Assembly (NCBI GenBank): GCA_964594115.1
Contig: CAZQLD010000002.1
Coordinates: 10,450-74,449 of the forward strand
Direction: 5' to 3'
Length of the DNA stretch: 64,000 bases
DNA from: Candidatus Woesearchaeota archaeon
Lineage (GTDB): Archaea > Nanobdellota > Nanobdellia > Pacearchaeales > GW2011-AR1
The position numbers were made by a program, and so were the translations under genes. The notes beneath the pieces are model-generated. The model saw only the letters and a list, made by a program, of their open reading frames with translations. It ran no database searches and was not told the DNA's origin. This document shows, in pieces, positions 14,382 through 38,950 of the stretch (positions are counted from its first letter, which is position 1; the number at the start of each line of letters is the position of its first letter).

Positions 14382-14383
14382 CT

Positions 14384-14710: not shown

Positions 14711-14711
14711 T

Positions 14712-16903: not shown

Positions 16904-16953
16904 TAATTAGTAAGGTGGGCAAAAATTAAAAACCTTTTCCACTAAATAATAAG

Positions 16954-18167: not shown

Positions 18168-18210
18168 GCATTTATTAAGAATATTCTACTTTAAAATTTA
18201 ACTCTTTTTT

Positions 18211-20287: not shown

Positions 20288-20704
20288 ATGGAATTTACAA
20301 TTAAAAGCAGGAAAAGAGAAGAGATTATTGATATTACTAATGAGGTTAGTGAAGCTGTTTCTAAGTTATGTGACGAGAATAAGAAAAGAATATGCAATAA
20401 AGATATTGGGGCATGTTTAGTATATGTGCCGCATGCAACCTGCGCGATAATTGTGAATGAAAATTACGATTCAGCTGTTTGTAGAGACATTCTGCAATAT
20501 CTGAAAAAGCAAATTCCAGAAGGGATTTGGGAGCATGATAAAATAGATAGTAATGCAGATTCTCATATTAAATCCACTTTATTAGGGCCTGGGCAAATAG
20601 TTCCGATTGATGCAGGAAAACTGCAGTTAGGGAGATGGCAGGGAATTGCTCTAGCAGAGTTTGACGGCCCAAGAAAAAGAAGAATTATTGTTAAAATCCT
20701 CTAG
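20288..20704 (+). CDS. YjbQ/UPF0047 family protein (secondary thiamine-phosphate synthase-like)
   Basis: 'EIIDITNEV', 'LVYVPHATCAIIVNENYD', 'HIKSTLLGP', 'LQLGRWQGIALAEFDGPRKRRIIVKI'. Confidence 0.7.
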   Translation: MEFTIKSRKREEIIDITNEVSEAVSKLCDENKKRICNKDIGACLVYVPHATCAIIVNENYDSAVCRDILQYLKKQIPEGIWEHDKIDSNADSHIKSTLLGPGQIVPIDAGKLQLGRWQGIALAEFDGPRKRRIIVKIL

Positions 20705-20969: not shown

Positions 20970-21578
20970 ATGGATAAAAGAGGCGCAAGCGAGATTGTAA
21001 CAATAGTTCTTCTAGTCTTTTTAGCATTGGTAGCGGTTCTTCTTATTTTGGATATTATTAATTCTGTAGTTGAGAAAGAAACTGAAAAAATTGAGCTGGA
21101 AGATTTTACAGAAAGTATGGATTCAGAAGCAGCTGGAGTATCTGCTGGAGATTTAGAAACTGCGCAAGCAGACTGTTTGTCTGATTGGGAGTGTGAAGAA
21201 TGGTCGAAATGTCAGGTTATTTATAATTTAGATGCAATTATTTCAGATGATATTTTTTTAGAAGGAGAGATGCAGAGAAAATGCAAGGACTTGAATAAAT
21301 GTAATTATAATAAAATTGAACAAAAAGAGTGTGAAACAAAAGCCAATGTTAGTGTTGAAAGAGTTAACAGATGTTCTAAAGAGTATATCGAGGTAAGGGA
21401 TAAAGATGAAGTTTTAATTTCAAGATTAGAGCTAACTAATGGAACTTCTCAGGAATTAAACATACAGTTATTTCTTGGAGATGTGAAGTATTGCTCTTAT
21501 TGTTATAATGATATAAAGGATTATGATGAAGATGAGGTTGATTGTGTTTATCAAGGAGATAGTTGTCCTATCTGTTAG
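20970..21578 (+). CDS. secreted acidic Cys-rich protein (N-terminal TM/signal)
   Basis: 'IVTIVLLVFLALVAVLLIL' anchor; 16 Cys including a C-terminal 'CSYCY...CVYQGDSCPIC'. Confidence 0.4.
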   Translation: MDKRGASEIVTIVLLVFLALVAVLLILDIINSVVEKETEKIELEDFTESMDSEAAGVSAGDLETAQADCLSDWECEEWSKCQVIYNLDAIISDDIFLEGEMQRKCKDLNKCNYNKIEQKECETKANVSVERVNRCSKEYIEVRDKDEVLISRLELTNGTSQELNIQLFLGDVKYCSYCYNDIKDYDEDEVDCVYQGDSCPIC

Positions 21579-24600: not shown

Positions 24601-27600
24601 CAGAACATGCGGAAAGTTTACCTAGTCCACTATCTTTTATTCATGACAATAAAAAATGCTCCATTTACGCTACTTATACTATCCCAGATATAATTCCTCC
24701 TATTATTAGTATAGTGTCTATTGGTGGTGATTCATCTTCTCCGTATTCTACTTCAGATAATACTCCTTTAGCAGTTATAACTACAAATGAAAATGCTGAT
24801 TGCAGGGCTTCTAGAGATGGTGATGAAAGTTATGATAGTATGAGTGATGATGTTGATTGTAGTGGAGATGGAGGGAAATCACACAATTGCCAGTTTGGGT
24901 TACTCAGTGATGGCTCCCCAACAGTGTATTTTGCTTGTAGGGACACTATCGGTAATAAAAATACAGCATCAAATAATAAGCAAACAGCAGTTCAAATAGA
25001 CACAAATCCACCAACCCAGTCAAATCATAATCCAGCAAAAGGTTCTACAATAAACACAAAATCTCCAACAATAACCTTTACTACAAATGAGCTTGGAGAT
25101 TGCAGAGCTTCACTATTAGATGAAAGTTATGATAGTATGTCAAATGATGTAGATTGCACATCAGGAACAAGCACATCACACTCTTGCTCTATGTCTGGGT
25201 TATCAGAGGGCTCTGAGGTTGTATATATAGCATGTAAAGATGATACATCTGTAAGTCCTAATAAAGATACTGTTGCAAGCAATGAACATGTTAATTATAT
25301 TGTTGATGCAGTTGCCCCTATTGTAACTATTAATTCAATAGGAGGAGATACTAGCCCTCCATTTAATATATCAGATATATCTCCAAGTGTATCTGCAACA
25401 ACTAATGAAAATGCTGATTGCAGGGCTTCAAATGATGGAGATGAAAGTTATGATAGTATGAGTGATGATGTTGATTGTAGTGGAGATGGAGGAACAAGCC
25501 ATACATGTAATTTTGGCATAATAGGAGCAGGAACCCATATAATTTCTGTGTCATGTAGGGATTCTGTTGGAAATAAAAATACTGCTGGAGATAATGATAA
25601 TGAACAAGTTGAAATTGATAATTCTGCACCAATTGTAACTATTAATTCAATAGGAGGAGATACTAGCCCTCCATTTAATATATCAGATATATCTCCAAGT
25701 GTATCTGCAACAACTAATGAAAATGCTGATTGCAGGGCTTCAAATGATGGAGATGAAAGTTATGATAGTATGAGTGATGATGTTGATTGTAGTGGAGATG
25801 GAGGAACAAGCCATACATGTAATTTTGGCATAATAGGAGCAGGAACCCATATAATTTCTGTGTCATGTAGGGATTCTGTTGGAAATAAAAATACTGCTGG
25901 AAATAATGATAATGAACAAGTTGAGATTGATAATTCTGTACCAACCCAGTTAAATCATAATCCAGCAAAAGGCTCTACAATAAGCACAAAATCTCCAACA
26001 ATAACCTTTAACACAAATGAAATTGGAGATTGCAGAGCTTCATTGTCAGATGAAAGTTATGACAACATGTCAAATGATGTGGATTGCACATCAGGAGCAA
26101 GCACATCACACTCCTGCTCTATGTCAGGATTATCAGAAGGTTCTGAGGTTGTGTATATCGCATGTGAAGATGATACTTCTGTAAGTCCTAATAAGGATAC
26201 TGCTGCAAGTAATGAACATGTTAATTATATTATTGATACATCTGCTCCTGCTGTGCAATTTGTTTTTCCAACTACACAATCTGGTAGTTATTCACAAAAT
26301 TATATAAAAGCAAATGTTACAGCAAATGATCCAAGTCTTGCTGATATTACAGTCTATCTTTACTTTCAATTTGGTCTTCTTCAATCAAGTTCAATAAATT
26401 CTCCATTGTTTGTTGAGTTTACTCCTTTAAGTGAAGGAACTTATTATTTAAATGCCACAGCAATTGATACACTAGGAAACAGGGGGTCTTCAGAAACAAG
26501 AACAATAATTCTTGATAGGTCTGACCCAACAATAACGCTTATTTCTCCTGTTAATGGGGATGTAAGAACAACCCCTTTATTTAATTTCGCGGCTGATTTT
26601 AATGATAGAGCTTTAAAAAATGCAACTCTTTATGTTTGGGATTCCTCTAGAAATATAGTAAATATTACAACAACAGCTCTTTCAGGAACTTCTGATTCTG
26701 CAAGCATTCCAGTGACTTTGCCTTATGAAGATACTTTTTACTGGAATTATTATGCTTGTGATGACTTAGGGAACTGCAGGTTTAGTAATGTTAACTGGAG
26801 TGTTACTTATGTAACTATTAAAATTGGTTTAGATGTTATTTGGCCTCCTGGAAATGTAGATGTAAGCCAGAACCAATTGTTTAATGTAACATTAAAAGTT
26901 TCTTGTAGTGGTGCTGATTGTGGTGATGTTGATGTTAGTTTAGACCCAGATGTTAAACTGCAAATTGAAAACTTAGAAGATGTGTTTTTTGGTTCATCAT
27001 TAGGGGACCAATATTCTGCAGTTAAATTTGATATAGGTTCTGTTCCGCAGAACATGGTTATTGAAAATGCTTTTTTAGCTCTTTATGTTTCTGAAACTGG
27101 TTCAGGTCTTGATTCAGATGTTAAATATTACAGGATAAACAATCAGGGCTGGACTGAAGGTAATACAGCAGGGGCTATGTGGAATTTAAGAAATTCAAGA
27201 GATACTGGAAAAACTGATAATTCTGCTTTTTCTTCAACTGGATGGACCTATTTAGATGTTACAGAAGCTGTAAGAAAAGAATATGAGTCTGGAAATAAAA
27301 ATGTTTCTTTTTGGTTAGAAGATCCAGATAATGCAGCAGATGTTCCAACTAATAGTTATGGTGGTGAAGATTATCTCCGGATTGGAAAAGGGGTTAGTAA
27401 TTTTTTTCATAGATTTTATTCAAAAGAGCATACTGGAGTATCAAATAGGCCATATCTTAATATAATTTATAGAAAAGGATTAATTCCGACAACCCCTTCT
27501 GTTCCTTTTTATACAATTTATAATAATCCAATAAGAATAAGTTTATTTGCTGGGGATACTAAGCTTGTTATATTTTGGGTAAATGCAACTGGTTCTGGAA

Positions 27601-30600
27601 CTTGGAATTTTTTTGCTTATGTAAATAAGACAAATGCTATGTCTATAAGCAATATAACTTCTTTTTGGAATGTTACAATTATAGATGTAACTAATCCAAC
27701 AATAAAACTTACTTCTCCTATAAATGGGGAGCAAATTCAAAGTTCTCCGGTAAATTTTAAAGCTAATTTTTATGATGCTGGTTTAAAAAATGCAACACTA
27801 TATATTTGGGATTCAAATGGGATTAATTATACTCAAACAATAGCCCTTTCAGGAACTTCTGATTCTGCAAGCATTCCGGTAATTTTAGGAGATGGAAATT
27901 ATAAATGGAATTATCAGGCTTGTGATGTAGGAGATAATTGCATTTCTAATAATATAAACTGGACATTTAGTTTAGATGCCACTCCTCCTGAGGTTAATTT
28001 ATTAAGCCCTCCAGACAATTTGACTATTACTTCCCAACAAACATTTAGTTTTGAAGCTAATTTTACTGATATTAATTTGAAAAATGCCACTCTTTTTATT
28101 TGGGATTCAACTAATAGCATTGTTCACAAACAAACAGATACTTTTTTGGGAAATTATGGCTATTCAAATATTTCAGTGACCTTACCTGATTCAGGCACTT
28201 TTTATTGGAATTATTATGCTTGTGATGGCTTAGGGAATTGCAGGTTTAGTAATGTTAACTGGAGTTTAATATTAGGAAGCGTTCCAATTACAAATACTCC
28301 TGTTTTAACAAATGTTAATCCCCAACTTGGACCTTCATCTGACTTAAATTGTTCATTTGTTATTACAGATTCTAATCCTTCTGACCCTCTTGCAGCTAAT
28401 GTAAGATGGTATAGAAATGGTGTTGAAGAGTCTGCTGTTAATGTTAATGTTCAGAATGGTGTTATGCACTCAGTTATTCTTGATTCAAACTATATTAATG
28501 CTTGGGAAAACTGGACGTGTAGTGTTATACCTTATGATGGCAGTGCATTTGGCATACTAAAAAATTCAAACCATGTGTTTATTAAAGCTCTTTTAGATAT
28601 TCAGTACTCTTCTAGCAAGCAGGATTTAGGAACAATAATAAATTATTCTATTTCTGCTAATCTAATTAATAAGCATACAGCACAACTTGAGACAGGGGAT
28701 ATATTAATTGAAGTTTCAAATTCTTCTGGAGTCCAGGCTGCTGGAATTTGTGTTAGCTCAAGTTCTTGTTTTAGGTCATGGTTTGTTCCAATTAGTTTAG
28801 GCTATGGTATTTATTTAGTGAATATTACTGGAAGCAATAAAACCCATTATTTAAGCAAGTCAGTTAGCTTTTCTGATAGTATTAGCTTATGGTCATGGAA
28901 TGTAAATCCTTCATCGCTTGATAAAATAAAAGCTATAGGTTCGCAAGGAATTTTAGAGATAATAGATGTAAATAATATGGGCAGTGAGATTATGGACTTT
29001 AATATATTAAGCAATAATCCTTCTATAATCTGGCCAGATGTTAGTTTTTTACAAGTTCCTCCTGATCAAAAAAACAGCTTTACGCTTAATTATAGTGCTC
29101 CTGCTAAAGGCACATATAGTATCAATGTAAGTGTTAGAAATCAAGAGGTTACTGCAGTTCCAAGGGAATTAAATGTTATTATAAATTTTACATCTGCTGA
29201 CTTAAAAGTCAATTTAATTTCCCCAACAAATCAAATACCTTTGACAAATGTTTCTATAGCACAAAAAGTAGAAATAATAACAAATGCAAGCTATGAAGGG
29301 GCGCCTATAATTAATGATTCTACTTGGATTATCAAAATTGGAGGGCGTGATTGTGGAGACATCACTTATTTTTATGATTTTATTAATGCTTACTGGAATA
29401 TTAGTTGTTCTGCTCCAGATGTGCCTGATGATAGGCCGCACCCTCTTGAAGCTGTGATGCTTAGTAATGAATATGGAGAAGTATCTTATAGTGAGGATGA
29501 TGTTGTGTATTATAGAGATACAAGCCCTCCTGTATTTGAAAATATATTCAGAAATAATATTAATATAAATGGACTGATAAATCTTATTGCAAATGTTTCT
29601 GATAATCTAGGAGTTAAATATGTTGTTGCTAATATAACTGATCCTAATTCAAGCAGTTTCGAATGCAATATGACTAATATTGGAGGATTATGGTTTTGTA
29701 ATTCTATAATCTTAAATCTAGCGGGAGAGTATATTGTTGATTATATCGCAAGCGATGTTTCTGGGAATACTGGTTATGCACAAGACTGGTTTGAGGTTTA
29801 TGACAGGTATTTTTGGGCTGTTAGTTTAGTTGATTATAATTCAACCCCTGTTAGTAATGTCAGTATAAGTTTATCCAGACCTTATACAGGGCCTGTTTTA
29901 GTGAGCAATATAACAAATGCTTTTGGAAAAGCAAATTTTTATGTCAATAAAAGAAAGTATGACATTCGTGGAGGAATTTCAGGCGACGAATTTATTGTAA
30001 GAGAGATTGACTTTGTAAACTCTTCTAACCCAATTTATTTGAATTTTTACAGATACAAAGGAGAGTTAGGGGAAGTTATACCATTACATAGGTTTGATGA
30101 AATTTCTTCTTTTGGAATAGTATCTAATTCAACTAATATGGATAGTAATTTGGTGACTTTGATATTTAATTATAGCTCACTTATTAATAATGTTAATTCA
30201 CTTACAAATCTAGAGATTATGCAGTGTTCAGTCTGGGATTACGCAGCTAGAAGTTGTTTGGGTGTTTGGCAAGCCTTAAGTTCTTCAAGGGATATTGATG
30301 TAAAGACAATTACTGGAAATTCAACTGGGTTTAGTGCATATTTTCTTACTGAAAATACCTGTGGAACTGGTGGCTGTGAGCCAGCTTTTGGAGAAGCAGT
30401 TGGCAATTGCGGTGACTGTATAGCTGGCGGAGGAGGTCCAAGCGGAGGCGGCGGTGGAGGCGGAGGCGGAGGTAGTATCAGCCGCTCTCAAGTAACTCAG
30501 ATTACAGAAAGTTTAATAAAAGTTGGAGGAGTCAGGATTGACACTTCTTCAATTTATGAAGAACTATTTCCAGGAGAAACAACAACAATTAATATAAAGC

Positions 30601-32708
30601 TGACTAACACTCTGAATAACTTCACAACTCTTGATTTAAGTACAGAAGGAAACATAATGCAGTTTATCTCATATGAAAGTGATAAGATTGATATAAAAGG
30701 AAAAGAGAGTAGAGATGTTCTAATAACAATTAGCATTCCTGAACTAACAGACCAAGGGACTTATGAGGGAAGTTTGGTTTTGAGTTCTGGAAATAAAACT
30801 GGAAAAATACCTACAACAATCAAGGTTCTTTCACTTGAGGGAAAATTATTAGATGTGAAAATACAGCCTTTGAATACACGGGTTTCACCTGGTTCAATAT
30901 TAAAATTACAGAGAGATTTGGTTAATGTTGGAAAAACAATCAGGGTTAGTGGGTTATTTGATTTGCAACTTTTAGAGGTGAATACAGGAGAGATTATGGC
31001 AAGAAACGAAGAAAGATTTATGGTAGAAACAAGTGTGAGTGATATTAAGGAATTAGAGATTCCTAAGAAAATAAAAGAAGGAGAGTATATGGTTAAGGCT
31101 GTTGCTCATTATTCTACTATGGATAAAGATATGCAGGCAACTTCTATTGCCCATATTAGTGTAGCTTATCCTTTTTTAAGCAGGAGATTTTTGTGGCTTC
31201 CTTTGTGGTTTTACTTATTGTTGATTTTAATGATTGTCTTTTTGATTGGAACATATTCTTATGCTAAATGGCGTGAATTTAGAAAAAAGAGATTTAAGGT
31301 TAAGGTAGCCCTCAACAAGCTTCCCCAAGCAGGACCAAATTCAGGATTTATTGGAAAGATTGCAGAAATAGGGGCTAGAGCGTTTGTTAATTTGAATAAT
31401 TTACAAATGCATACATTAATTGCAGGAGGTACTGGCTCTGGTAAAACTATTGCTGCCCAAGGAATTGCAGAAGAAGCTCTGCTCCATAAAAAGAGTGTTA
31501 TTGTTTTTGATCCTACTGCCCAGTGGACTGGGCTTTTAAGAGCTTGTAAAGACAAAGGAATGTTAAGAAGGTATAGTTATTTCAATATGAAGACAAAAAA
31601 AGCAAGAGGATTCAATGGAACAATCAAAACAATACATGACCCTTATGAATTAATAGATATAGGGAAATATATGAATAAACCCGGAGAAATAACAGTATTT
31701 AATCTAATTCATTTAGCTCCAAAAGAAATTGATATTGTTATTTCAAGTACAATTGAGCAAATTTTTAAGTTAGAACCAGAAGAAAGCAAAAGTTTGAAGA
31801 ATCTAATTATATATGATGAAGTTCACAGACTTCTTCCTAAATTCGGAGGAAGTGGAGAAGGTTTCCTACAGCTGGAAAGAGGGGCAAGAGAATTTAGAAA
31901 ATGGGGGGTTGGTTTAGTTTTAATAAGCCAGGTATTAAGTGATTTTATTGGAGAGATTAAAGCTAATATTGGAACAGAGATTCAGTTGAGGACAAGATAT
32001 GAAGGAGATTTAGAAAGAGTTAATATGAAATATGGAGATGATATATTAAAATCTGTTGTTAAAGCGCCTATTGGAACTGGAATGGTTGTTAATGCAGAAT
32101 ATAATAATGGAAGCCCTTATTTTATTGCGTTTAGGCCTGTATTGCATAGCACTAAGAGATTGACAAAACCAGAATTGGAAAAATATGAAAAGCATTTTGA
32201 AGAAGCAGAAGACATAGAATATCAAATTAATCAATTGAGGACACTTGGGGCTGATGTGTTGGATTTAGAATTAGAACTAAAACTTGCAAGAGGAAAGATA
32301 AAGACAGGGCAGTTTCCAATGGCTGATATGTACCTTCAGATATTAAGACCTAAATTAGAAGAAAGTTGGATGAGTGTTGGAAAAAAGCCAAGACATTTGG
32401 TTAAGAAAAAGATAAGCAGAGAGGAAATTGTAGGAGGAATTGCTAAAGCGAAGGAAGAAAGGGTAAAATATATAAAGGAAAATCCCGAAGAAATAATAGA
32501 TATAGGACGAGAAATTTCAAAATTAAAGAAGAAATTAGCAGAAAAAAAGAGGAAAGGCGGAGATAAGAGACTTATTTCAAACATTGATTCCTGGATACAT
32601 GCTCTAAAAGAGAGAATAAAGCCATTTAAAGGAAAGATAAACACAGAAGACTCTGAAGTAATTATGAAGGCATTGGAGTCTGTAGGAAAAGAAATAGATA
32701 AATTGTAA
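21693..32708 (+). CDS. giant (3,671 aa) membrane protein: N-glycosylated Ig-like-repeat ectodomain fused via TM helix to a C-terminal cytoplasmic FtsK/HerA/VirB4-class P-loop ATPase
   Basis: The ORF is uninterrupted for 11 kb in an AT-rich background. TM1 is 'HLIGILLLLIIGILLV' (aa ~55-75). Ectodomain repeats include CRAS...DVDC repeats (x5) and NATL[YF][IV]WDS repeats (x3). A poly-Gly linker spans ~30426-30473. TM2 is 'WLPLWFYLLLILMIVFLIGTY' (~31188-31255). Walker A 'MHTLIAGGTGSGKT' (~31419-31451). Walker B 'LIIYDEVHRLLP' (~31802-31837). 'LISQVLSDFIGEIKANIGTEIQLRTR' follows. Confidence 0.7.
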   Translation: MVYKKYIKRGNKRFGPYYYESYRDKDGKVRTRYIGETIYCKSSKKGLDKVKTKHLIGILLLLIIGILLVRVLPLLEDSERTIGIKGGLRDLEKTGFSEEARAPIVGLAVSGETPVEMSTKKIEVKTKRYSVVINRPVKWVKTVKVDDKTDIENLTLEIPKEAEFINIKTAEEVQEVLENITDYNKEIKQLDKRDLKQGEVSLAALKTRTSLVLKIVNWVKDSRAKIVGYVLEEWEIEEGIKKTKDETVIELGRVVELEKQVEDILEKQAEAEIAVEYLTEGPQSVEEELPNGKRIRITAADEFEYKDILAYTELDNSISMQDVEKAKLYWYISEEDLKLIEEIPKTLEEVSNFEETEEIDVEFVKEREEIIGETKEIEEVVTISEENITEEIVEQPTSLENTSEETEIPTLGPLNKLVEWTKWIYGPEIVGSATAQETELEKKLIKVPVEFEAYDLDEDGNVDYIEWIVPYLSEQVYEFVIEIAKAEHLDENKNFIADIYSVVSEKDNVWGTVGNNEYLRIIFEQPLKSKDDITVYMKAGQPAEIEVYEGNTEELIAVFESIQEENLYKVYLTNLREESYYIFDLKIKGEVEFDSVYGTVWKEVCDEKEICVYESEKEGIKAEIGNKDREDKEYEPHLKLSKWNNEVLFKIKPDSENSISKITGSVVSEKIKEIRWDKPKIKGEDSVDMSSELKEVEWHYEEIGDFPVLKMDEIIKQKPDTNIFSYKIESENLDYYYQLPLYLEYGLTEPNSTCNATNCQGAYRPVNVVGSYAVYHKTKANNEYKTGKAFHIYRPKIYEKNNENNWIWGDLNIDEEQGILTITIEQNWLDNADYPIVIDPVFGYQTVGGSMAKLSTYQGEEYGNTPRGSLFTMPEIGWVDSISAYIHMYSNDLGHAGAIYKHFDSSKVGQTETVLLLGDSTVSWRTFNFNPPASVSNIDYVLVVHQWTGGYYTNLYYDSGTTNQGHYRDAEHAESLPSPLSFIHDNKKCSIYATYTIPDIIPPIISIVSIGGDSSSPYSTSDNTPLAVITTNENADCRASRDGDESYDSMSDDVDCSGDGGKSHNCQFGLLSDGSPTVYFACRDTIGNKNTASNNKQTAVQIDTNPPTQSNHNPAKGSTINTKSPTITFTTNELGDCRASLLDESYDSMSNDVDCTSGTSTSHSCSMSGLSEGSEVVYIACKDDTSVSPNKDTVASNEHVNYIVDAVAPIVTINSIGGDTSPPFNISDISPSVSATTNENADCRASNDGDESYDSMSDDVDCSGDGGTSHTCNFGIIGAGTHIISVSCRDSVGNKNTAGDNDNEQVEIDNSAPIVTINSIGGDTSPPFNISDISPSVSATTNENADCRASNDGDESYDSMSDDVDCSGDGGTSHTCNFGIIGAGTHIISVSCRDSVGNKNTAGNNDNEQVEIDNSVPTQLNHNPAKGSTISTKSPTITFNTNEIGDCRASLSDESYDNMSNDVDCTSGASTSHSCSMSGLSEGSEVVYIACEDDTSVSPNKDTAASNEHVNYIIDTSAPAVQFVFPTTQSGSYSQNYIKANVTANDPSLADITVYLYFQFGLLQSSSINSPLFVEFTPLSEGTYYLNATAIDTLGNRGSSETRTIILDRSDPTITLISPVNGDVRTTPLFNFAADFNDRALKNATLYVWDSSRNIVNITTTALSGTSDSASIPVTLPYEDTFYWNYYACDDLGNCRFSNVNWSVTYVTIKIGLDVIWPPGNVDVSQNQLFNVTLKVSCSGADCGDVDVSLDPDVKLQIENLEDVFFGSSLGDQYSAVKFDIGSVPQNMVIENAFLALYVSETGSGLDSDVKYYRINNQGWTEGNTAGAMWNLRNSRDTGKTDNSAFSSTGWTYLDVTEAVRKEYESGNKNVSFWLEDPDNAADVPTNSYGGEDYLRIGKGVSNFFHRFYSKEHTGVSNRPYLNIIYRKGLIPTTPSVPFYTIYNNPIRISLFAGDTKLVIFWVNATGSGTWNFFAYVNKTNAMSISNITSFWNVTIIDVTNPTIKLTSPINGEQIQSSPVNFKANFYDAGLKNATLYIWDSNGINYTQTIALSGTSDSASIPVILGDGNYKWNYQACDVGDNCISNNINWTFSLDATPPEVNLLSPPDNLTITSQQTFSFEANFTDINLKNATLFIWDSTNSIVHKQTDTFLGNYGYSNISVTLPDSGTFYWNYYACDGLGNCRFSNVNWSLILGSVPITNTPVLTNVNPQLGPSSDLNCSFVITDSNPSDPLAANVRWYRNGVEESAVNVNVQNGVMHSVILDSNYINAWENWTCSVIPYDGSAFGILKNSNHVFIKALLDIQYSSSKQDLGTIINYSISANLINKHTAQLETGDILIEVSNSSGVQAAGICVSSSSCFRSWFVPISLGYGIYLVNITGSNKTHYLSKSVSFSDSISLWSWNVNPSSLDKIKAIGSQGILEIIDVNNMGSEIMDFNILSNNPSIIWPDVSFLQVPPDQKNSFTLNYSAPAKGTYSINVSVRNQEVTAVPRELNVIINFTSADLKVNLISPTNQIPLTNVSIAQKVEIITNASYEGAPIINDSTWIIKIGGRDCGDITYFYDFINAYWNISCSAPDVPDDRPHPLEAVMLSNEYGEVSYSEDDVVYYRDTSPPVFENIFRNNININGLINLIANVSDNLGVKYVVANITDPNSSSFECNMTNIGGLWFCNSIILNLAGEYIVDYIASDVSGNTGYAQDWFEVYDRYFWAVSLVDYNSTPVSNVSISLSRPYTGPVLVSNITNAFGKANFYVNKRKYDIRGGISGDEFIVREIDFVNSSNPIYLNFYRYKGELGEVIPLHRFDEISSFGIVSNSTNMDSNLVTLIFNYSSLINNVNSLTNLEIMQCSVWDYAARSCLGVWQALSSSRDIDVKTITGNSTGFSAYFLTENTCGTGGCEPAFGEAVGNCGDCIAGGGGPSGGGGGGGGGGSISRSQVTQITESLIKVGGVRIDTSSIYEELFPGETTTINIKLTNTLNNFTTLDLSTEGNIMQFISYESDKIDIKGKESRDVLITISIPELTDQGTYEGSLVLSSGNKTGKIPTTIKVLSLEGKLLDVKIQPLNTRVSPGSILKLQRDLVNVGKTIRVSGLFDLQLLEVNTGEIMARNEERFMVETSVSDIKELEIPKKIKEGEYMVKAVAHYSTMDKDMQATSIAHISVAYPFLSRRFLWLPLWFYLLLILMIVFLIGTYSYAKWREFRKKRFKVKVALNKLPQAGPNSGFIGKIAEIGARAFVNLNNLQMHTLIAGGTGSGKTIAAQGIAEEALLHKKSVIVFDPTAQWTGLLRACKDKGMLRRYSYFNMKTKKARGFNGTIKTIHDPYELIDIGKYMNKPGEITVFNLIHLAPKEIDIVISSTIEQIFKLEPEESKSLKNLIIYDEVHRLLPKFGGSGEGFLQLERGAREFRKWGVGLVLISQVLSDFIGEIKANIGTEIQLRTRYEGDLERVNMKYGDDILKSVVKAPIGTGMVVNAEYNNGSPYFIAFRPVLHSTKRLTKPELEKYEKHFEEAEDIEYQINQLRTLGADVLDLELELKLARGKIKTGQFPMADMYLQILRPKLEESWMSVGKKPRHLVKKKISREEIVGGIAKAKEERVKYIKENPEEIIDIGREISKLKKKLAEKKRKGGDKRLISNIDSWIHALKERIKPFKGKINTEDSEVIMKALESVGKEIDKL
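25319..25942 (+). repeat. two tandem ~312-bp copies (~99% identical) inside the giant ORF
   Basis: 25319-25630 and 25631-25942 differ at only a few bases near their 3' ends. Antisense ORFs 25402..25632 and 25714..25968 give identical peptides, which confirms the duplication. Confidence 0.85.
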
Positions 32709-32740: not shown

Positions 32741-34018
32741 ATGTTTTTTAAGAAAAAAGAAAAAGGAGTTCCTGATGTAGGTCAGGAAGATACTTATGAT
32801 AGGGAGATGAACAGAAATGGTGTTGAGCTCAGAGACGAATCGGGAGAACCTTCTATGATGCCAGAATCCTCAAACCCTAATTTTTCTTCAACTCCCAATA
32901 TCCCGAGCATTGCTTCTCCTAATGCTCCCCCTCCTTCTCCAAGTATGCCTGCTCCTGAGCCTCCGAATCTTCCTCCTTCAAATATGCCAGCCCCTACTTT
33001 AAATATGTCTGCTTCTAATATGATTGCATTGGAGTTTGAAAAAATTAATGCAAAGATTGAGGCAATGGTTGTATGGATAAAGCAATTTTATGAAAGATTC
33101 TATCATGCTTGTGAAAATATAGGAGAGGTTAGAAATATGGCACTTACAAATGAGAAAAGTATTGCTAAAGCAGTTAGAGACTCAACTAGGGCTATTGACC
33201 TTGTTAAAGAAGTGAAGCCAGAAAAATTAAGAATTGATAACAGGAGATTAGATATGAAAATAAATGCTCTTTCTGAGAAAATAGAATTAAGCAAACAATT
33301 TTCAGAGAGTATTATGAAAGAACTTAAGGTTTTGAAAAGAAGAGCAGATGTTTTTATTGGGACAGAGGAGTTGTTGAAGTTAAATGATGAGGTTAAGAAA
33401 GATTTGATTGAAATCCAAAAATTTGGTTCAAGGGTAAGATTAGATTCAGATAAATCAGAACAGATTTTTATTGAATTGAAAAAATCCTTATCAGAGGTTC
33501 AGAGAATAGATGCCAAATTCACTAATTTCAGTAATATTTCTTCTGAGTTGAGGGAGGAAGTAGAAAAATTAAAAATTAAAGCACGTCATTTAGATGATAT
33601 TAGAAAATCCAGTGATTTAACAGAAGATTTAATTGAAAAAACACTTTTGCTTGCGAAAAAGAACAAGCAAGCCATAGGAGGATTTACAGTTACAGATTAT
33701 GAAAAGAGGTTAAATGCTATTTTGAAAGTGGTGGATAATCTCGTCGGACAGATTTCTGATATTAAAAGAAAACTAGCAGGGTCAGAAGATGTTGATCTGG
33801 CTCCAAAAACAGTTAATGTTAAAAAGATAATTAAGGACCTGCCTTCAATTAAAAAAACAAGAAACCCAAAACCTGAAAAACTAAAATCTAGAAACCCTAA
33901 AAAATCCAAGAGATATGTTAAGTCTGAAGAGCCTCCTGAACTTCCTGTGCCTCCTATACCTTCACCTCCTCCTGAAGAAAATAAAGAAAGAAAGAAAAGA
34001 AACAGGAAAAAACAATGA
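32741..34018 (+). CDS. Pro-rich N-terminus + long coiled-coil protein with basic C-terminal tail
   Basis: 'PNAPPPSPSMPAPEPPNLPPSNMPAP', then ~250 aa of heptad-like K/E-rich helix. C-terminus 'PPELPVPPIPSPPPEENKERKKRNRKKQ'. Confidence 0.45.
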   Translation: MFFKKKEKGVPDVGQEDTYDREMNRNGVELRDESGEPSMMPESSNPNFSSTPNIPSIASPNAPPPSPSMPAPEPPNLPPSNMPAPTLNMSASNMIALEFEKINAKIEAMVVWIKQFYERFYHACENIGEVRNMALTNEKSIAKAVRDSTRAIDLVKEVKPEKLRIDNRRLDMKINALSEKIELSKQFSESIMKELKVLKRRADVFIGTEELLKLNDEVKKDLIEIQKFGSRVRLDSDKSEQIFIELKKSLSEVQRIDAKFTNFSNISSELREEVEKLKIKARHLDDIRKSSDLTEDLIEKTLLLAKKNKQAIGGFTVTDYEKRLNAILKVVDNLVGQISDIKRKLAGSEDVDLAPKTVNVKKIIKDLPSIKKTRNPKPEKLKSRNPKKSKRYVKSEEPPELPVPPIPSPPPEENKERKKRNRKKQ

Positions 34019-34716
34019 GTGAAAAACCCCCTTTAAAGAAAGAATCTAAAAAAGAGAAAGTTAAGGGGAAAAAGAAAGCAATTGGAAAGCGCCCTTTATC
34101 TAGGAGATTTACAAGGGCTACAGGAGGTCCTGCGGTTTTGACTCCTTCTCAGTTTGAAATAGAACCCCTGTTTATCCCGCAACTTACTCCAGATTATCCT
34201 GAAGAAAAGTTAAGAGGGATTATTAAGAAAACTGAGGTTAAGCCAAAAACCAGTATTAAGGATTTAGCTAGAAAGCTTGATGCTCTTAAGCATGCGTATT
34301 TGTCTAAAAAACAAAAACCAGTTGTTATGGAAAACCCTCCCATTAAGAAGCCCCCTGTTAAAAAACCAGAATTTCCAAGCAATAAGATAATTTTGATTAA
34401 AAAACCTTTAGTTAAAAAACCAATACTAATCTTCACGAAAAAATCAGTTACAAAGAAACCTGATAAAAAACTAGAGTCCTTAACTAAAAAGGCAATCTTA
34501 ATCAAGAAAACCCCTGAATCCAAAGGATTCCCAAAACCCCTAATTAAAAAATTAAAGCCAGTTGTTGTCAAAAAACCCATGAAAAAAGAACCTGCTAAAT
34601 CTACAGGAGAGTTCCTTAAATTACCTAAGATGCCATCTTTAACCTTTTCACTGAAAAAATCCTCGAAACAAGAAAAAACAAAGAAAAAGTCTATAGCCAA
34701 AGAAGATAATAAATGA
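34015..34716 (+). CDS. Lys/Pro-rich repetitive basic protein
   Basis: Repeats of 'KKP(x)VKKP', 'IKKPLVKKPILI', 'LIKKLKPVVVKKPMKK'. 4-nt overlap with the upstream ORF. Confidence 0.4.
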   Translation: MSEKPPLKKESKKEKVKGKKKAIGKRPLSRRFTRATGGPAVLTPSQFEIEPLFIPQLTPDYPEEKLRGIIKKTEVKPKTSIKDLARKLDALKHAYLSKKQKPVVMENPPIKKPPVKKPEFPSNKIILIKKPLVKKPILIFTKKSVTKKPDKKLESLTKKAILIKKTPESKGFPKPLIKKLKPVVVKKPMKKEPAKSTGEFLKLPKMPSLTFSLKKSSKQEKTKKKSIAKEDNK

Positions 34717-34719
34717 AAT

Positions 34720-34914
34720 TCAACCGAGCTTTTTTTCTATATCTTTAATTCTTTGCTCAAAATTTTGTTTTCTAAGTTCCTGTGTTTCTGGATCTTGTTC
34801 TTTTTTTAGAAAATTCATTAGTTTCAATTTTCTGTAAATAAGAAGTAAGAGTATAATTAGGACTACTACTATTGCAACTAATGCTCCTAAGATTATCATG
34901 ACCCAGTATTCCAT
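34720..34914 (-). CDS. small single-pass membrane protein
   Basis: N-terminal TM 'VMIILGALVAIVVVLIILLLLIY'. Confidence 0.3.
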   Translation of the reverse strand: MEYWVMIILGALVAIVVVLIILLLLIYRKLKLMNFLKKEQDPETQELRKQNFEQRIKDIEKKLG

Positions 34915-34968
34915 TTTAGACTCCTCTTTTTGTTTTTAATTAGAAGGATTTATAGTTTTTAAGTTTAT

Positions 34969-35727
34969 CTAAGGTTTATTTTCTATTAATGAATAGGGCG
35001 TTGTCCTATAGAGTATAAATCTGCTTCCAACAAACTCAGAAATAACTGCACTGATTCTTAAATCTCCAGTAATTGCCTTAAAAACCCCTCCTGTTATAGG
35101 AATCCTTGCGCTTTTTGAGAAGTTCTCAATTATTTTTTTAATGTCATCTTCTGATAATTTTATTTTTGTGAAATTTACTCTGTTTGCTTTTTTAACAAGT
35201 ATGAGTTTCTCAGGTCCAAGACACTCTATAATTGTAATTGCTTTGTCTTTTAAAAGTATATTCAACTTTCCTAAATCTGGTTCTGCTCTGGTTTCTGTAA
35301 CTGGAGGAGCTGACATTTCTGATGGAGGGGCGGAAATAGGTCTGGTAAATCTTCTTGTAAGGCGAGTTGGTCGAATTGTTAGGTTTGATGGCCTTTGTAT
35401 TTTTGGCAGGGGCTTAATTGGATGTATTGGCTGGATTCGTTGTATTGGCCGGGGAAAAATTTGTGTGGGCTGCGCCACTTCTGGAACAATACGCGGCAAG
35501 AAATTTTCAGCAGGTTTTTCTATTCTTTTTTTAGATTCTTGCTCCTTTAATTTAGTCATTTCTTGTAATATTTGGGAGTGGGGCAGTATAGGAGGAAGCA
35601 CATGGATTTCTTTAGCTGGCTGTTCAGCAGGTTTTTCTATTGCAGGCTTTTTAGAGTTAATAATAAGCTCTTGAGTAAAAAGTTTCAAAAAAAGAATTTT
35701 ATCTTTATTAGTCATTTGTTTTAACAT
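34969..35727 (-). CDS. Pro-rich linker protein with folded C-terminal domain
   Basis: Central 'PxxPxQ' repeats ('PRIVPEVAQPTQIFPRPIQRIQPIHPIKPLPKIQRP'). The C-terminal ~110 aa are globular. Preferred over the antisense ORF 35141..35674. Confidence 0.4.
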   Translation of the reverse strand: MLKQMTNKDKILFLKLFTQELIINSKKPAIEKPAEQPAKEIHVLPPILPHSQILQEMTKLKEQESKKRIEKPAENFLPRIVPEVAQPTQIFPRPIQRIQPIHPIKPLPKIQRPSNLTIRPTRLTRRFTRPISAPPSEMSAPPVTETRAEPDLGKLNILLKDKAITIIECLGPEKLILVKKANRVNFTKIKLSEDDIKKIIENFSKSARIPITGGVFKAITGDLRISAVISEFVGSRFILYRTTPYSLIENKP

Positions 35728-35764
35728 TTTAAAAACAAAAAATAATTTACTGAGATAACTTTAA

Positions 35765-36145
35765 TTATAAGTGGGGATATCTCGGCCTTCCTGGATTTAA
35801 ATTACGTACAGGGGGTCTTTCTCTTAACCTTTCTTCTATTAAAGTTAGGCCTCTGGCTATTGTTTTGTTTTGTTCAAGCAGAATATCTAGTTTCTCTAAG
35901 AGTTCTTGATTTTTCTCTTCTGTTTTCGTAATTGATTTTTTTTCTATGTCTGGGATTTGTTTTTCTACAAAACTTTTTGCAGATATTTCAAAAAGCTGGA
36001 GTAATTTAGACATTTTTTCAGAAAGTGAGTCAAATTTAATAGATAAATTTGTAAGAACTTTTTGCAAATTGACAAAATTTTCTATAAGCATTTTGTCAAG
36101 TTCTGGTTTTGCTGGATTTTTTATTTTTGCCACTTTATTTTTCAC
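35765..36145 (-). CDS. coiled-coil protein
   Basis: 126 aa, heptad-rich. Confidence 0.35.
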   Translation of the reverse strand: MKNKVAKIKNPAKPELDKMLIENFVNLQKVLTNLSIKFDSLSEKMSKLLQLFEISAKSFVEKQIPDIEKKSITKTEEKNQELLEKLDILLEQNKTIARGLTLIEERLRERPPVRNLNPGRPRYPHL

Positions 36146-36223
36146 ATCTTTTTTTCATAATTAAGTTAGGAATATGTAATTTATAAAGATTGCGATAATA
36201 GTATAGAATAATTAATTTTTACA

Positions 36224-37084
36224 TTAATTTTCTCCTCTCTTTAATCTTTCTAACTCCTCTTTATCCCTTCTTAATTTTTCTTCAGCTTCTTTTATCTTGT
36301 TTTTTTTATTTTTAATGTTAGCTATTTCTTCTTGAAGCGCCCTTGCTCTTTTTTCTAATTCTAAGAGTTTTTTTTCTTCTTCAGTTAAATCTTTTTCACT
36401 TACTGCTCTTTCTTTTATTTCATCTTTGATTTCACTATATTTGCGAATCTTGATATTTTTAGATGATGGTTTTCTTATTAGTAAGGGTTTTTTTAGTATT
36501 GTCTTTCTAAAAATAAGAAACAGTATTGCTGCAACAATGAGAATCCCTATAGTAATAAAATAAACAATATTTGGAAGAAATCCATCACCTTCAGGAGCAC
36601 TTGAGCCAACTGTTGCATTTAAATTTTCTGTTCCTTCTGATGAGGATGTTGTAGTAGTTGTATTTGTTGTAGTAGTTGTATTTGTTGTAGTAGTTGTATT
36701 TGTTGTAGTTGTAGTAGTTGTATTTGTTGTAGTTGTAGTAGTTGTATTTGTTGTTCCCATGTGTTCTTCTTTGAGTAACCTAAGGCTAATTGTACCTCCT
36801 GTGGTATATCCTTCAAATTTCTTAAATACAACCAGTTTTCCATTTTTTCTTACTATTATGGAAAAATCTATCTTGCTTAGGTCGCAATTGAATTCAAATA
36901 TTGCTTTTCCTTTTGAGCCTGAATCTTTATTTAAAATTTGAATAGGATCTTCTACAGCTGGATTGAATATATTAGCAGTTACATTGTGATAGGCATAAGT
37001 TTCTACTTCTATTTGAGTAGTTACAGCTGAGACACTAGCTATTGCAAATAAGACTATAAGAATACAAATTATTTTTTTCACCAT
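36224..37084 (-). CDS. membrane protein with mucin-like Thr/Asn repeat stalk and cytoplasmic coiled-coil tail
   Basis: Signal peptide and beta ectodomain. 'TNTTTTTTTNTTTTTTTNTTTTTNTTTTTNTTTTT' is encoded by a 21-nt periodic repeat. TM is 'IVYFITIGILIVAAILFLIF'. K/E-rich coiled coil follows. Confidence 0.5.
   Translation of the reverse strand: MVKKIICILIVLFAIASVSAVTTQIEVETYAYHNVTANIFNPAVEDPIQILNKDSGSKGKAIFEFNCDLSKIDFSIIVRKNGKLVVFKKFEGYTTGGTISLRLLKEEHMGTTNTTTTTTTNTTTTTTTNTTTTTNTTTTTNTTTTTSSSEGTENLNATVGSSAPEGDGFLPNIVYFITIGILIVAAILFLIFRKTILKKPLLIRKPSSKNIKIRKYSEIKDEIKERAVSEKDLTEEEKKLLELEKRARALQEEIANIKNKKNKIKEAEEKLRRDKEELERLKRGEN
36648..36754 (-). repeat. 21-nt periodic coding microsatellite (gttgtagtagttgtatttgtt)n encoding a Thr/Asn stalk
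   Basis: Five direct units read from sequence. Confidence 0.8.
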
Positions 37085-37146: not shown

Positions 37147-37218
37147 TGGGCGCGGGGGGAGTTTAACCCCCTTCTGGTGGTCTGGAGCCACCTATTCTAG
37201 ACGTTGAACTACGCACCC
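37147..37218 (-). tRNA. tRNA-Trp (anticodon CCA), intron-less
   Basis: Reverse complement folds as GGGTGCG-TA-GTTC..GAAT-A-GGTGG-CTCCAGA-CCACC-AGAAG-GGGGG-TTAAACT-CCCCC-CGCGCCC-A. Confidence 0.75.
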
Positions 37219-37706: not shown

Positions 37707-38381
37707 TTAAAGCCTTTTTATCTCTTCTATTTCGTTTCTAGATACAGAGCAGCCTTTGTATTTTACTGCATATAGAAGGGCATCTAGGACAAGGCCATTT
37801 TTTAGTTCTACAAGTTTATTTTTATAAGCAATATAAACCAATTCAGTTGAACGAATAACCTTAAATTTTTCAAATTCCCAAAAATTTTCTTTTTTAACTT
37901 TAACTTTGGTATGGAGCTTGGTTTCTAAAAGTTTTTGGAGATTTTCTGGATTTTCACATAACATCCTTGTTGTTCTCTCGTCTATAGCAAGAATATTTTT
38001 TATTCCTTTTCTGGTGAGAATCTCAGATAAAGCAAGACAAGAGGATTCTCCTCTGTCAATTAAATGGAGATAGCTGTTTTTTGCAATAAAAGTGCGATTT
38101 GATGTTCTTAGTAGTTCTCTGCTTCTTTCTTCTATTTGTGAATTTTTGATTCCAACAGAATCAGGCAGTTCTATGATTTTTTTATTTAAAAGAGACTGAA
38201 TCCTTAATGCTCCTAATTCAAATTTCTTTATATTTAAAGGGCGTTTTATTGTTTCATATCTTACATCTTCTGTGATTAAGAATTTTCCATTGAAAATTGT
38301 CTTTAATTTTGCAAGTACATCAAGTAAGCCATTCATTGAAAAGTTAATTAAGGTGGAGGCATCGAAGATTAAGGCTTTCAT
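37707..38381 (-). CDS. hypothetical protein, possible PIN-like nuclease fold
   Basis: N-terminus 'MKALIFDASTLINFSMNGLLDVL' resembles a PIN first strand with Asp. Start overlaps the upstream gene's stop (ATGA). Confidence 0.3.
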   Translation of the reverse strand: MKALIFDASTLINFSMNGLLDVLAKLKTIFNGKFLITEDVRYETIKRPLNIKKFELGALRIQSLLNKKIIELPDSVGIKNSQIEERSRELLRTSNRTFIAKNSYLHLIDRGESSCLALSEILTRKGIKNILAIDERTTRMLCENPENLQKLLETKLHTKVKVKKENFWEFEKFKVIRSTELVYIAYKNKLVELKNGLVLDALLYAVKYKGCSVSRNEIEEIKRL

Positions 38382-38950
38382 GTTTTAAACATATCCTCTG
38401 CTTGTTTTATTCTTTGTTTTATAGGCAGGGTTACAGTCAGATTTACATCTGATATTCCTGTCTGCCCAGCATATTCTGCAAGCTCCCAGATTGTAATCCC
38501 TAGGAGTTTGGCTGTTTGCTCTATAGAGATTCCGTGTTCGTAAATTCTGCTTGCTTTATTGATTTCTGCTTTTCTGAAAACATCCTGGATATATTTTTTA
38601 AATTTGCCAGAAAGCTTTCCTATTTCACTCCTTATTTCATTAATATTGTTTCTAAAACCTTTAATATCGCTCTTTTCTAGGTTTTCAACTGCCTTGTTTA
38701 TGTTTTCAACATATTTCTTGTGAAAATTTGGCCATTCTTTATAGTAAGTATATTTTTTTCTTTCTATTATCTTGCTTAAAGCATAGATCATCACTGCTAG
38801 AGCTATTCCATCAGGGTCTTGTTTAATAGAAGCTGCATGAATTGTTTTATTGCTTAAATTTTTTAGCTTTATGGTATCTTCTTTTCTAACAGCTGCTTTT
38901 GTTTCCTTTAGAACAGATAAGATGTGCTCTTTTTCCTCTAGTTTTTCCAT
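38378..38950 (-). CDS. HTH-containing regulator-like protein
   Basis: C-terminal 'ISIEQTAKLLGITIWELAEYAGQTG' helix-turn-helix. Translationally coupled to the downstream ORF. Confidence 0.35.
   Translation of the reverse strand: MEKLEEKEHILSVLKETKAAVRKEDTIKLKNLSNKTIHAASIKQDPDGIALAVMIYALSKIIERKKYTYYKEWPNFHKKYVENINKAVENLEKSDIKGFRNNINEIRSEIGKLSGKFKKYIQDVFRKAEINKASRIYEHGISIEQTAKLLGITIWELAEYAGQTGISDVNLTVTLPIKQRIKQAEDMFKT

Follow-up and report, generated by a model that had tools for sequence, protein, structure and literature searches.

Two gene units, probably separate in evolution, adjoin a giant ATPase-fused surface protein gene in a DPANN archaeon

DPANN archaea have tiny genomes and most of them are thought to live attached to a host; little is known of the ways in which they attach to it and exchange material, and the majority of their surface genes lack annotation. 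FliH of flagellar and type III secretion export, the E/G peripheral stalks and FlaX of the archaellum are coiled-coil connectors or stators of membrane ATPase machines. Two kinds of motor are relevant here: (i) the FtsK/HerA-type ATPases VirD4/TraD, EccC/EssC and the archaeal Ced/Ted DNA-import ATPase (PMC9905601), in which a transmembrane (TM) helix is followed by a cytoplasmic P-loop domain, and (ii) the secretion ATPases of the T2SSE/VirB11 family, i.e. FlaI, archaeal GspE, CpaF/TadA, VirB11 and PilB, the N-terminal domain (NTD/N2) of which has a beta3-alpha-beta3 fold. Giant archaeal surface proteins have been described as the SPEARE proteins of Nanohaloarchaeota (PMC6642349) and as halomucin-like huge proteins (PMC11573180). 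Here we analyze the interval 32741-37084 of a 64,000-nt stretch of contig CAZQLD010000002.1 (the window, by which we mean this whole stretch). The interval follows the gene of a giant surface protein with a C-terminal ATPase domain and contains six genes that we label A to F. The closest known things to the individual parts are the secretion-ATPase N-domains (for D), the FtsK/HerA-type ATPases (for the giant protein) and, by architecture only, the coiled-coil connectors (for A). We consider it likely that two units with separate evolutionary histories meet in the interval, (i) a surface-protein module consisting of the giant gene, A, B and C, and (ii) the unit F-E-D. The features of the two units are, in window coordinates:

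21693-32708, + strand: giant gene, 3671 aa
31266-32708, + strand: C-terminal, cytoplasmic part of the giant protein, bearing the DUF87/HerA ATPase (Pfam, motifs)
32741-34018, + strand: gene A, 425 aa (listing of open reading frames, ORFs)
32741-32794, + strand: N-terminal peptide of A, (M)F(L/F)KKKxxxPPDVGQEE, with P11, D12, G14 and E16 nearly invariant (33 sequences)
33011-33781, + strand: helical core of A, aa 91-347 (AlphaFold2, AF2, helices; heptad score)
34015-34716, + strand: gene B, 233 aa (ORF listing)
34720-34914, - strand: gene C, 64 aa (ORF listing)
34969-35727, - strand: gene D, 252 aa (ORF listing)
34993-35280, - strand: C-terminal domain of D, aa ~150-245 (AF2 with a predicted local distance difference test, pLDDT, score >95; Foldseek; profile)
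35765-36145, - strand: gene E, 126 aa (ORF listing)
36224-37084, - strand: gene F, 286 aa (ORF listing)
36647-36755, no strand assigned: tandem DNA repeat coding for the stalk of F, periods 18 and 24, with three perfect 24-nt copies

The strands converge within the interval: A and B run with the giant gene on the + strand, while C, D, E and F occupy the - strand. A starts 32 nt after the stop codon of the giant gene, A and B overlap in an ATGA within A-rich DNA, B and C are convergent with 3 nt between their stop codons, and the end of E is separated from the start of D by 37 nt. Public annotators have called the six genes identically on several independent JGI/Logan assemblies, and the proteins are 100% identical. 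An earlier reading of this DNA, hereafter the initial annotation, spoke of five genes while its own text listed six, and placed the whole cluster downstream of the giant gene, omitting that only A and B share the strand of that gene and that C to F are opposite and convergent. Its description of the proteins is borne out throughout, including the compositions, TM segments, Pro-rich spacers, KKP motifs, heptad segments and the sequon-rich Thr/Asn stalk. None of the six proteins has a significant match in Pfam, NCBIfam, PADLOC or PHROGs; sub-threshold coiled-coil, TM and compositional matches in these databases were set aside as noise.

The distinction between two units comes from the gene order around homologs, for which we used 21 independent loci with A (L011-L027 and L108-L111; L112 duplicates L111) and 80 metagenome loci with D that span 611 kb. 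An A homolog lies directly downstream of a homologous giant gene on the same strand in 15 of the 21 A loci, and in 13 of the 21 the C-terminal ~530 aa of the giant protein are 53-65% identical to the ATPase region of the window. The giant ATPase or A is found in 0/80 D loci and, conversely, D, E or F is found in 0/19 A loci outside the sub-clade of the window. The giant-A and D-E-F units are adjacent only within this sub-clade, i.e. in L108 and L111, which copy the layout of the window with UPF0047, g202 (a small membrane or secreted protein described below), giant, A, B and convergent D, E and F. In both of these loci the upstream giant protein is homologous to that of the window across the ectodomain and the second TM helix, and ends in a ~110-aa Lys-rich tail without the ATPase.

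These data bear directly on the proposal of the initial annotation, here extended to all six proteins, that they are ring or stalk accessory subunits of a single secretion- or conjugation-like machine driven by the giant ATPase. The genes are indeed adjacent in the window, L108 and L111, all six encode membrane, coiled-coil or low-complexity proteins, and the domain in D is otherwise known only from secretion ATPases. However, the two sets of genes occur apart in the loci counted above, E-D resides among housekeeping genes, and no genes for VirB4, VirB6, a relaxase, a pilin platform or a T2SSE ATPase accompany them among the window ORFs scanned. Moreover, because the giant proteins of L108 and L111 stand beside D-E-F without an ATPase, D, E and F are unlikely to be accessories of the ATPase, and because A and B persist beside these same ATPase-less giants, we suggest that A (and B) partner the giant surface protein and not the ATPase itself. 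The notion of one machine is, therefore, largely refuted by synteny and we regard it as very improbable. In total, the synteny with the giant gene that the initial annotation had proposed to check is present for A, and B and C can be traced to the module of the giant gene, but it is absent for D, E and F. Of the suggested partnership with the ATPase, there remains that A neighbors the giant membrane protein, but A and B are kept where the ATPase has been lost. The alternative that the initial annotation had allowed for, namely fast-evolving ORFans, does not apply as such: no gene among the six qualifies as a true ORFan, although the distribution of B, C and F is narrow.

In the giant protein, a short cytoplasmic N-terminus is followed by TM1 (aa 50-78), an ectodomain of ~3100 aa that contains CBM96 and Ig-like modules, TM2 (aa 3165-3191), the cytoplasmic ATPase and a helical tail. 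The C-terminus matches Pfam DUF87 (PF01935) at 32.0 bits, which is above the cut-off of 23.2, and the ATPase region matches HerA in PADLOC (E 1.4e-15) and HerA chains in PDB (E 1.5e-5). The Walker A motif GGTGSGKT, which begins at nt 31425, and the Walker B motif LIIYDE at nt 31803 are both intact. Based on the DUF87 match and the two motifs, the C-terminal domain is predicted to be a P-loop ATPase of the FtsK/HerA superfamily. It shares with VirD4/TraD, EccC/EssC and the Ced/Ted ATPase the order of a TM helix and a cytoplasmic P-loop domain, and differs from them in its fusion to a ~3100-aa extracellular adhesin-like region. Unlike in membrane-anchored FtsK/HerA-type systems, the ATPase is dispensable in the sister lineages L108 and L111. 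Matches to family models of the TraD, CedD and TraC type in NCBIfam are far below the cut-offs (24-29 bits versus 366-600), and there are no adjacent genes for a VirB6/CedA-like channel, a pilin or a relaxase. Similarly, Pfam scans of 57 window ORFs detected no VirB4, VirB6/CedA-like channel, relaxase, pilin, pilin-platform or T2SSE ATPase gene, and what surrounds the module in L011-L013 and L108-L111 are genes for housekeeping functions or for surface proteins. Thus, the combination of VirB4/VirD4 with a channel, pilins or a relaxase by which a type IV secretion, conjugation or Ced-type system would be recognized is not encoded among the window ORFs scanned, and the secretion or conjugation machine of the initial annotation gained no further component there.

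With regard to its extracellular part, the giant protein parallels the SPEARE and halomucin-like proteins in being very large, extracellular and repeat-rich, in having carbohydrate-binding/Ig-like modules and in belonging to a small-genome archaeon, and a role in cell-cell contact is plausible. These proteins differ in domain content, and neither a C-terminal HerA-type ATPase nor an A-like partner is described for them (PMC6642349, PMC11573180). Within the ectodomain (25314-25937, + strand), two identical copies of a ~104-aa module (APIVTINSIGGDTSPPFNISD...KNTAG) stand in tandem, one at aa 1208 and the other at aa 1312, which suggests a very recent internal duplication; related copies are found further upstream in the same protein. 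A poly-glycine linker (GGGGPSGGGGGGGGGG; 30426-30473, + strand) precedes the last extracellular domains, and the ATPase-less giant of L108 has a longer Gly run at the same place.

A begins with the N-terminal peptide listed above, which is, as judged from its conservation, a candidate docking motif. The peptide is followed by a Pro-rich region with 15 Pro per 40 aa around residues 41-90 and by a helical core. AF2 predicts helices at residues 91-158, 160-204, 209-313 and 317-347 with pLDDT 70-93 and no compact fold, and the heptad score is 0.82 compared to a shuffle 95th percentile of 0.60. The long helices of the core are interrupted by an F-x-G-T break at aa 205-208, of which F205 and G207 are invariant in the alignment. 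The 61 homologs identified (E down to 1e-85, 28-50% identity, 318-685 aa) share a common plan consisting of the N-terminal peptide, a variable Pro/Ser-rich linker, the ~250-aa helical core and a variable charged tail. Pfam found neither a common family nor a WXG100 match in 33 members of the family, the profile of A retrieved only coiled-coil noise from PDB, and the AF2 model gave no Foldseek match. In architecture, with a short conserved terminal peptide joined by a flexible linker to a long coiled coil, and with a gene next to that of an ATPase, A resembles FliH, the E/G stalks and FlaX, but it matches none of them in sequence or structure and it also occurs where there is no ATPase. The sole FlaX match was to the tail of F, with an E of 0.0047 that is far below the cut-off. 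The spacing between the giant gene and A is 0-160 nt in most loci; L018 has two genes inserted there and L026 has one. The inserted genes of L018 (7670-9726) encode a Walker-A protein of ~420-430 aa ending in ...WKWLLEE / ...LWKFLLRE and a 255-aa protein; a gene like that of the Walker-A protein precedes A in L015 (732-1994), and it may be a mobile or selfish insertion in both loci.

By analogy with the helical-hairpin substrates of type VII secretion by EccC/EssC, A could alternatively be a substrate, i.e. cargo, of the FtsK/HerA-type ATPase. A is all-helical, its long helices are separated by the conserved F-x-G-T break and its terminal peptide is conserved as well; the giant ATPase, for its part, falls within the superfamily of EccC and VirD4. 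Whereas substrates of the WXG100 type would be recognized by a ~100-aa hairpin, a WxG turn and a C-terminal export signal, A has 425 aa with four long helices; the members of its family are 318-685 aa long with long disordered regions, and the WxG motif is missing. Given also that no channel components are encoded nearby and that A and B persist where the giant protein has lost its ATPase, we regard a cargo function as quite improbable and favor A as a partner of the giant surface protein.

The third member of the surface-protein module is reduced in the window. In 13 of the 21 A loci a surface protein of ~1084-1180 aa with CBM96 or disaggregatase repeats adjoins A. The genes of these ~1150-aa proteins are usually convergent to A with abutting stop codons, as are B and C in the window, and the proteins end in a TM helix and a ~35-aa cytoplasmic tail with the terminus [FI]xx[KR]IxxIxxKL. 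Including L024, in which a 286-aa protein with the same tail ending is encoded just upstream of A, a tail-bearing neighbor is present in 14/21 loci. C, which has one TM segment, aligns end to end with the anchor and tail of the ~1150-aa proteins, and its start Met falls on an alignment position at which 6/8 aligned tail-bearing proteins have Met. A hidden Markov model (HMM) of the tail, built without C, matches C over its full length (E 2.9e-15) and no other ORF of the 64-kb window, and it also detects tails outside its training set in L021-L023, L025, L026 and L110; C also matches L017 by tblastn (E 9e-8). Thus, the window has only the 64-aa anchor and tail of a ~1150-aa surface protein and lacks its ectodomain. 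In position, strand and sequence C corresponds to the 3' end of the third module gene, and it may be either a minimized version or a remnant of this gene. In L016, L017, L024 and L027, in which A has no giant neighbor although the context is visible, a tail-bearing membrane protein is still adjacent, and it is mainly on this basis that we propose a contact between A and the tail. A C-terminal motif common to the tails of the giant and ~1150-aa proteins was also considered and dropped, because the tail HMM matches no giant ORF. The Met in front of the TM anchor in most ~1150-aa proteins (KME-Y, KMTEY, KMEF; L013, L016, L018, L024) aligns with the start of C (34912-34914), and the synthesis of a C-like mini-protein by internal initiation is conceivable in these genomes. 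Elsewhere in the window (6175-9318, + strand), a CBM96/Ig-like surface protein of 1047 aa is a paralog of the ~1150-aa proteins with a TM anchor and a short basic tail and without the conserved tail module.

Turning to the second unit, D consists of an N-terminal amphipathic helix (aa 7-25), a Pro-rich spacer (~61-150) and a folded C-terminal domain (~150-245), and the D family as a whole has a helix with the sequence RxxFLKxFTxELIxNS, a variable Pro-rich linker and a C-domain of ~100 aa. A word-indexed search returned 65 homologs and an exhaustive profile search 1694 clusters at 50% identity, of which the best 150 all have a length of 187-382 aa. Searched against PDB, the D sequence alone matched nothing, while the family profile had a weak similarity to FlaI (4ii7, E 0.009, FlaI residues 65-187) and matched archaeal GspE at E 0.19. 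Foldseek with the modeled D domain retrieved 2oap, 8rkd, 9e24, 2gza and 4ii7 (E 1e-5 to 1e-4); the best superpositions have probability 1.0, E ~1e-5 and a root-mean-square deviation of 1.7-1.9 A over 96-99 columns. The domain also superposes on the PilB N-domain, with Foldseek E values across GspE, CpaF, VirB11, FlaI and PilB ranging from 1e-5 to 1e-2. By these matches, the C-domain of D has the fold of the N-terminal domain of T2SSE/VirB11-family secretion ATPases, i.e. the same beta3-alpha-beta3 arrangement as the NTD/N2 of FlaI, archaeal GspE, CpaF-TadA, VirB11 and PilB. D is not itself a member of this ATPase family: it has no Walker A motif and ends ~7 aa after the N-domain, leaving no RecA-like domain with Walker A/B motifs and Asp and His boxes, and T2SSE (PF00437) matches 0/38 D-family members at E<=0.01, with no other Pfam family common among them. 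Instead, it brings an N-terminal helix and a Pro-rich linker of its own and belongs to a stand-alone family of ~190-380 aa. Both units are, thus, set apart from known systems, D by the lack of an ATPase domain and the giant protein by the lack of surrounding channel, pilin and relaxase genes.

E and D form a nearly invariant pair: among the 48 D loci with room for E, all but one (47) carry it immediately 5' of D and in the same orientation. E has two conserved heptad segments, at residues 17-61 and 80-109 (score 0.80, shuffle 95th percentile 0.55), and is more conserved than D (44-63% identity). E ends in an RP(L)P(R/K)(Y/F) peptide, and E profiles matched nothing significant in PDB or Pfam. 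The genes around E-D and around the giant gene include:

20970-21578, + strand: g202, membrane or secreted protein, 202 aa, just upstream of the giant gene
37147-37218, - strand: tRNA-Trp(CCA), separating F from the backbone genes upstream of it
37707-38381, - strand: PIN-like/DUF3368 protein, 224 aa, backbone
38378-38950, - strand: helix-turn-helix (HTH)/UPF0175-like protein, 190 aa, backbone

Homologs of the PIN-like and HTH genes (45-78% identity) lie co-directionally just upstream of E-D in 20 of the 25 D loci with >=4 kb of upstream sequence, and given this conservation the UPF0175/HTH and DUF3368/PIN pair behaves like core genes despite its resemblance to a toxin-antitoxin system. The usual order downstream of D is a small gene, an amino-acid kinase, ribonuclease P (RNase P) p30 and phenylalanyl-tRNA synthetase (PheRS). 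In the window the same genes are found at 12780-19329, upstream of the giant gene. The 28 loci with >=4 kb of downstream sequence have small housekeeping genes there, and in none of them is there an ORF >=900 aa among the first three genes downstream of D. Homologs of g202 are convergent to D within 1.5 kb in 10/50 loci and lie upstream of the giant gene in L108 and L111, and in the closest relatives g202 and UPF0047 (20288-20704 in the window) follow D directly in convergent orientation. The giant-A-B-C block is therefore an insertion/deletion difference located between g202 and D. g202 has no Pfam match; by eye only, its N-terminus MDKRGASEIVTIVLLVFLALVAV resembles the class III (type IV pilin-like) signal peptides of archaea. 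The C-terminal domain of g202 is Cys-rich. In L006 a 1085-aa surface protein encoded beside D ends in a g202-like domain.

The fold of the D domain raises the question of whether the second unit is instead a type IV pilus-like accessory, in which D supplies or mimics the N-domain of a pilus ATPase, as a regulator or in trans. The matches of the fold to the N-domains of FlaI, GspE, CpaF and PilB would fit this idea, as would g202, with an N-terminus that looks pilin-like by eye, in its position convergent to D in 10 of the 50 loci. However, no gene for a pilus ATPase, platform protein or peptidase was found beside E-D in the gene-listed loci or among the window ORFs scanned, and the neighborhood consists of information-processing genes. 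We consider the pilus-accessory model, which concerns the F-E-D unit only, doubtful and favor an assignment of E-D to the housekeeping backbone.

F opens with a hydrophobic N-terminal signal and an ectodomain of ~100 aa. The Thr/Asn stalk that follows contains 7 N-X-S/T sequons, the TM segment lies at ~170-195, and the charged, helical tail of ~90 aa has a borderline heptad score (0.70 versus a shuffle 95th percentile of 0.72). With the tandem repeat in its coding DNA, the stalk is likely strain-variable in length; the stalks of relatives are acidic or Thr-rich and of differing lengths. F shares with archaeal S-layer and surface glycoproteins a signal peptide, a sequon-rich Thr/Asn stalk near the membrane and a single TM anchor, and it has weak compositional NCBIfam matches to halobacterial S-layer glycoproteins. 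It differs from these in its small size (286 aa) and ~90-aa cytoplasmic coiled-coil tail, and it reaches no family threshold. A search of 5.8 billion proteins returned only 2 matches to F. Nevertheless, F-like genes with 29-49% identity lie upstream of E-D in L032, L033, L038, L108 and L111, and their products have the same architecture: a signal peptide and a ~100-aa domain are followed by a stalk and a TM segment, with the motif KxRKYSE(I/M)K next to the membrane and a tail that is a coiled coil. No homolog of the giant ATPase or of A was detected in L032, L033 or L038, and F thus goes with E-D and not with the giant gene. F is a fast-evolving, lineage-specific, glycoprotein-like membrane protein.

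B is rich in Lys (26.6%) and Pro (12%) with six [IVLP]xKKP motifs, and its composition suggests that it is probably disordered. A B homolog is absent in most A loci, and in L108 and L111/L112 homologs of 129-131 aa overlap the A stop codon in the same way and share the motifs LSR(R/Q)FTR...PSxF...IP and GEGFLK...FS with B. B is therefore a real companion of A that is restricted to the sub-clade. B as a split tail of A was also considered: uncorrected BLAST matches of B to the Lys-rich tails of longer A homologs are compositional, and with composition correction the best match is one of 24 aa to P0067 at E 0.18, which is not significant. As the homology to A tails is lost under this correction, the idea rests on position only.

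More generally, B, C and F could be decaying or fast-evolving remnants, with B as a frameshifted tail of A, C as what is left of a truncated 1150-aa gene and F as variable filler. Such an origin would account for the low complexity of B, the combined length of A and B of 658 aa, which is within the range of A homologs, the slippery A-rich DNA at the A/B junction, the retention in C of 64 of ~1150 aa, and the paucity of database matches to F. However, the B-like genes of L108 and L111 have kept a common motif and an ATGA-type overlap, C retains the whole anchor/tail module with the aligned start Met, F has kept its architecture and KxRKYSE(I/M)K motif in five lineages, and all three genes are identical in several independent assemblies. 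On balance, we find it improbable that these genes are remnants and regard B and C as parts of the surface-protein module and F as part of the F-E-D unit.

Several observations weigh against the separation into a giant/A/B/C module and an F-E-D unit, or against parts of it. (i) Six of the 21 A loci have no visible giant gene, although three of these contigs have <2.4 kb upstream. (ii) The AF2 model of A is extended, with a predicted template modeling score (pTM) of 0.23 and no structural match. (iii) C could be a non-functional remnant, and the hydrophobicity of the TM segment contributes to the tail-HMM scores. (iv) The convergent layout of giant-A-B and D-E-F has been kept in L108 and L111 despite protein identities of 33-56%, and a functional link between the two units within the sub-clade of the window is therefore possible. 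Given that the A proteins of L108 and L111 are 64% identical to each other and each only ~30-33% identical to A of the window, the adjacency of the two units is old within the sub-clade. The adjacency is most simply explained as inherited gene order.

Combining the gene structures and domain assignments with the homology and synteny data, we infer the following roles for A to E and the physical interactions among their products and the giant protein. The giant protein crosses the membrane twice, with ~3100 aa outside and the HerA/FtsK-type ATPase inside. The giant gene, A and B may be co-transcribed, and B would be translationally coupled to A. A could function as a cytoplasmic scaffold or connector, made up of the N-terminal peptide on a flexible Pro-rich tether and the coiled coil, that attaches to the giant protein and to the tail-bearing surface protein (in the genome of the window, C) through their cytoplasmic parts and in that way organizes a surface complex, which the HerA-type ATPase, where present, would power or regulate. 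C would provide the membrane anchor and cytoplasmic tail of the usual third module member, here reduced to the anchor. In the second unit, D is probably held at the membrane by its N-terminal amphipathic helix and would offer the secretion-ATPase N-domain on the Pro-rich linker as an interaction surface, while E could be a helical partner that binds D or recruits it by means of its C-terminal peptide. This unit belongs to a backbone with the order HTH-PIN-(F)-E-D-...-amino-acid kinase-RNase P p30-PheRS and is probably no partner of the giant ATPase.

The remainder of the window is informative about the host. Rfam gives five tRNA matches in the window, two of which are long (104 and 173 nt), as expected of intron-containing tRNAs. 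These two, at 1549-1721 (+ strand) and 11375-11478 (+ strand), were missed by ARAGORN run in bacterial mode and are probably intron-containing archaeal tRNAs. Homologs come from metagenome-assembled genomes named Pacearchaeota, Woesearchaeota and Nanoarchaeota. Together, the long, intron-type tRNAs and these homologs indicate that the window derives from a DPANN archaeon that is Pacearchaeota/Woesearchaeota-like. A scan for sigma-70 promoters and terminators gave counts equal to those in shuffles, and the sigma-70 model is uninformative for an archaeon. At 2306-3473 (+ strand), the gene for a nucleotidyltransferase with a TrmB-like HTH overlaps one for a HEPN-domain protein, an arrangement typical of toxin-antitoxin-like pairs of the MNT-HEPN kind. 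Two genes for tRNA synthetases of class Ib (Trp/Tyr-type) are located 3 kb apart at 49957-51114 (- strand) and 53951-55318 (- strand), with three unannotated or peptidase genes between them.

In the searchable literature we found no description of either unit, and in the open-access literature no relevant description of a giant HerA-fusion protein or of an orphan FlaI N-domain in DPANN archaea. Through these analyses, low-complexity ORFs that had been only loosely grouped resolve into two units that are defined and can be tested. The analyses also show that, for half of the genes, the initial annotation was led astray by their being neighbors in one genome. One of these units is a conserved three-part surface module, consisting of an adhesin-like giant protein that is often fused to a HerA/FtsK-type domain, A, and a ~1150-aa tail protein, and it yields clear hypotheses about interactions. 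The other contains E-D, a very widespread pair in which D re-uses a secretion-ATPase N-domain without the motor. It is a tentative and, taken as a whole, rather doubtful proposition that two unannotated systems specific to DPANN archaea meet here, either of which could be new to cell biology: a new envelope-spanning apparatus made up of the giant protein, A and the tail protein, and E-D as a core module at the membrane that has an orphan N-domain of secretion ATPases as its basis. If true, a giant adhesin that is fused via one TM segment to a HerA/FtsK motor would be tied by A to a second large surface protein, and E-D might act as a regulator of pilus-type ATPases or, alternatively, as a new factor in division or membrane remodeling that is recruited by the PLPRY peptide of E. 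Both units are candidates for new Pfam-type families and targets for experiments in the few cultivated DPANN systems. If the proposal holds, a device made up of the giant protein, A and the tail protein could couple contact with the host cell to the ATP-driven translocation of DNA or protein in episymbiotic archaea.

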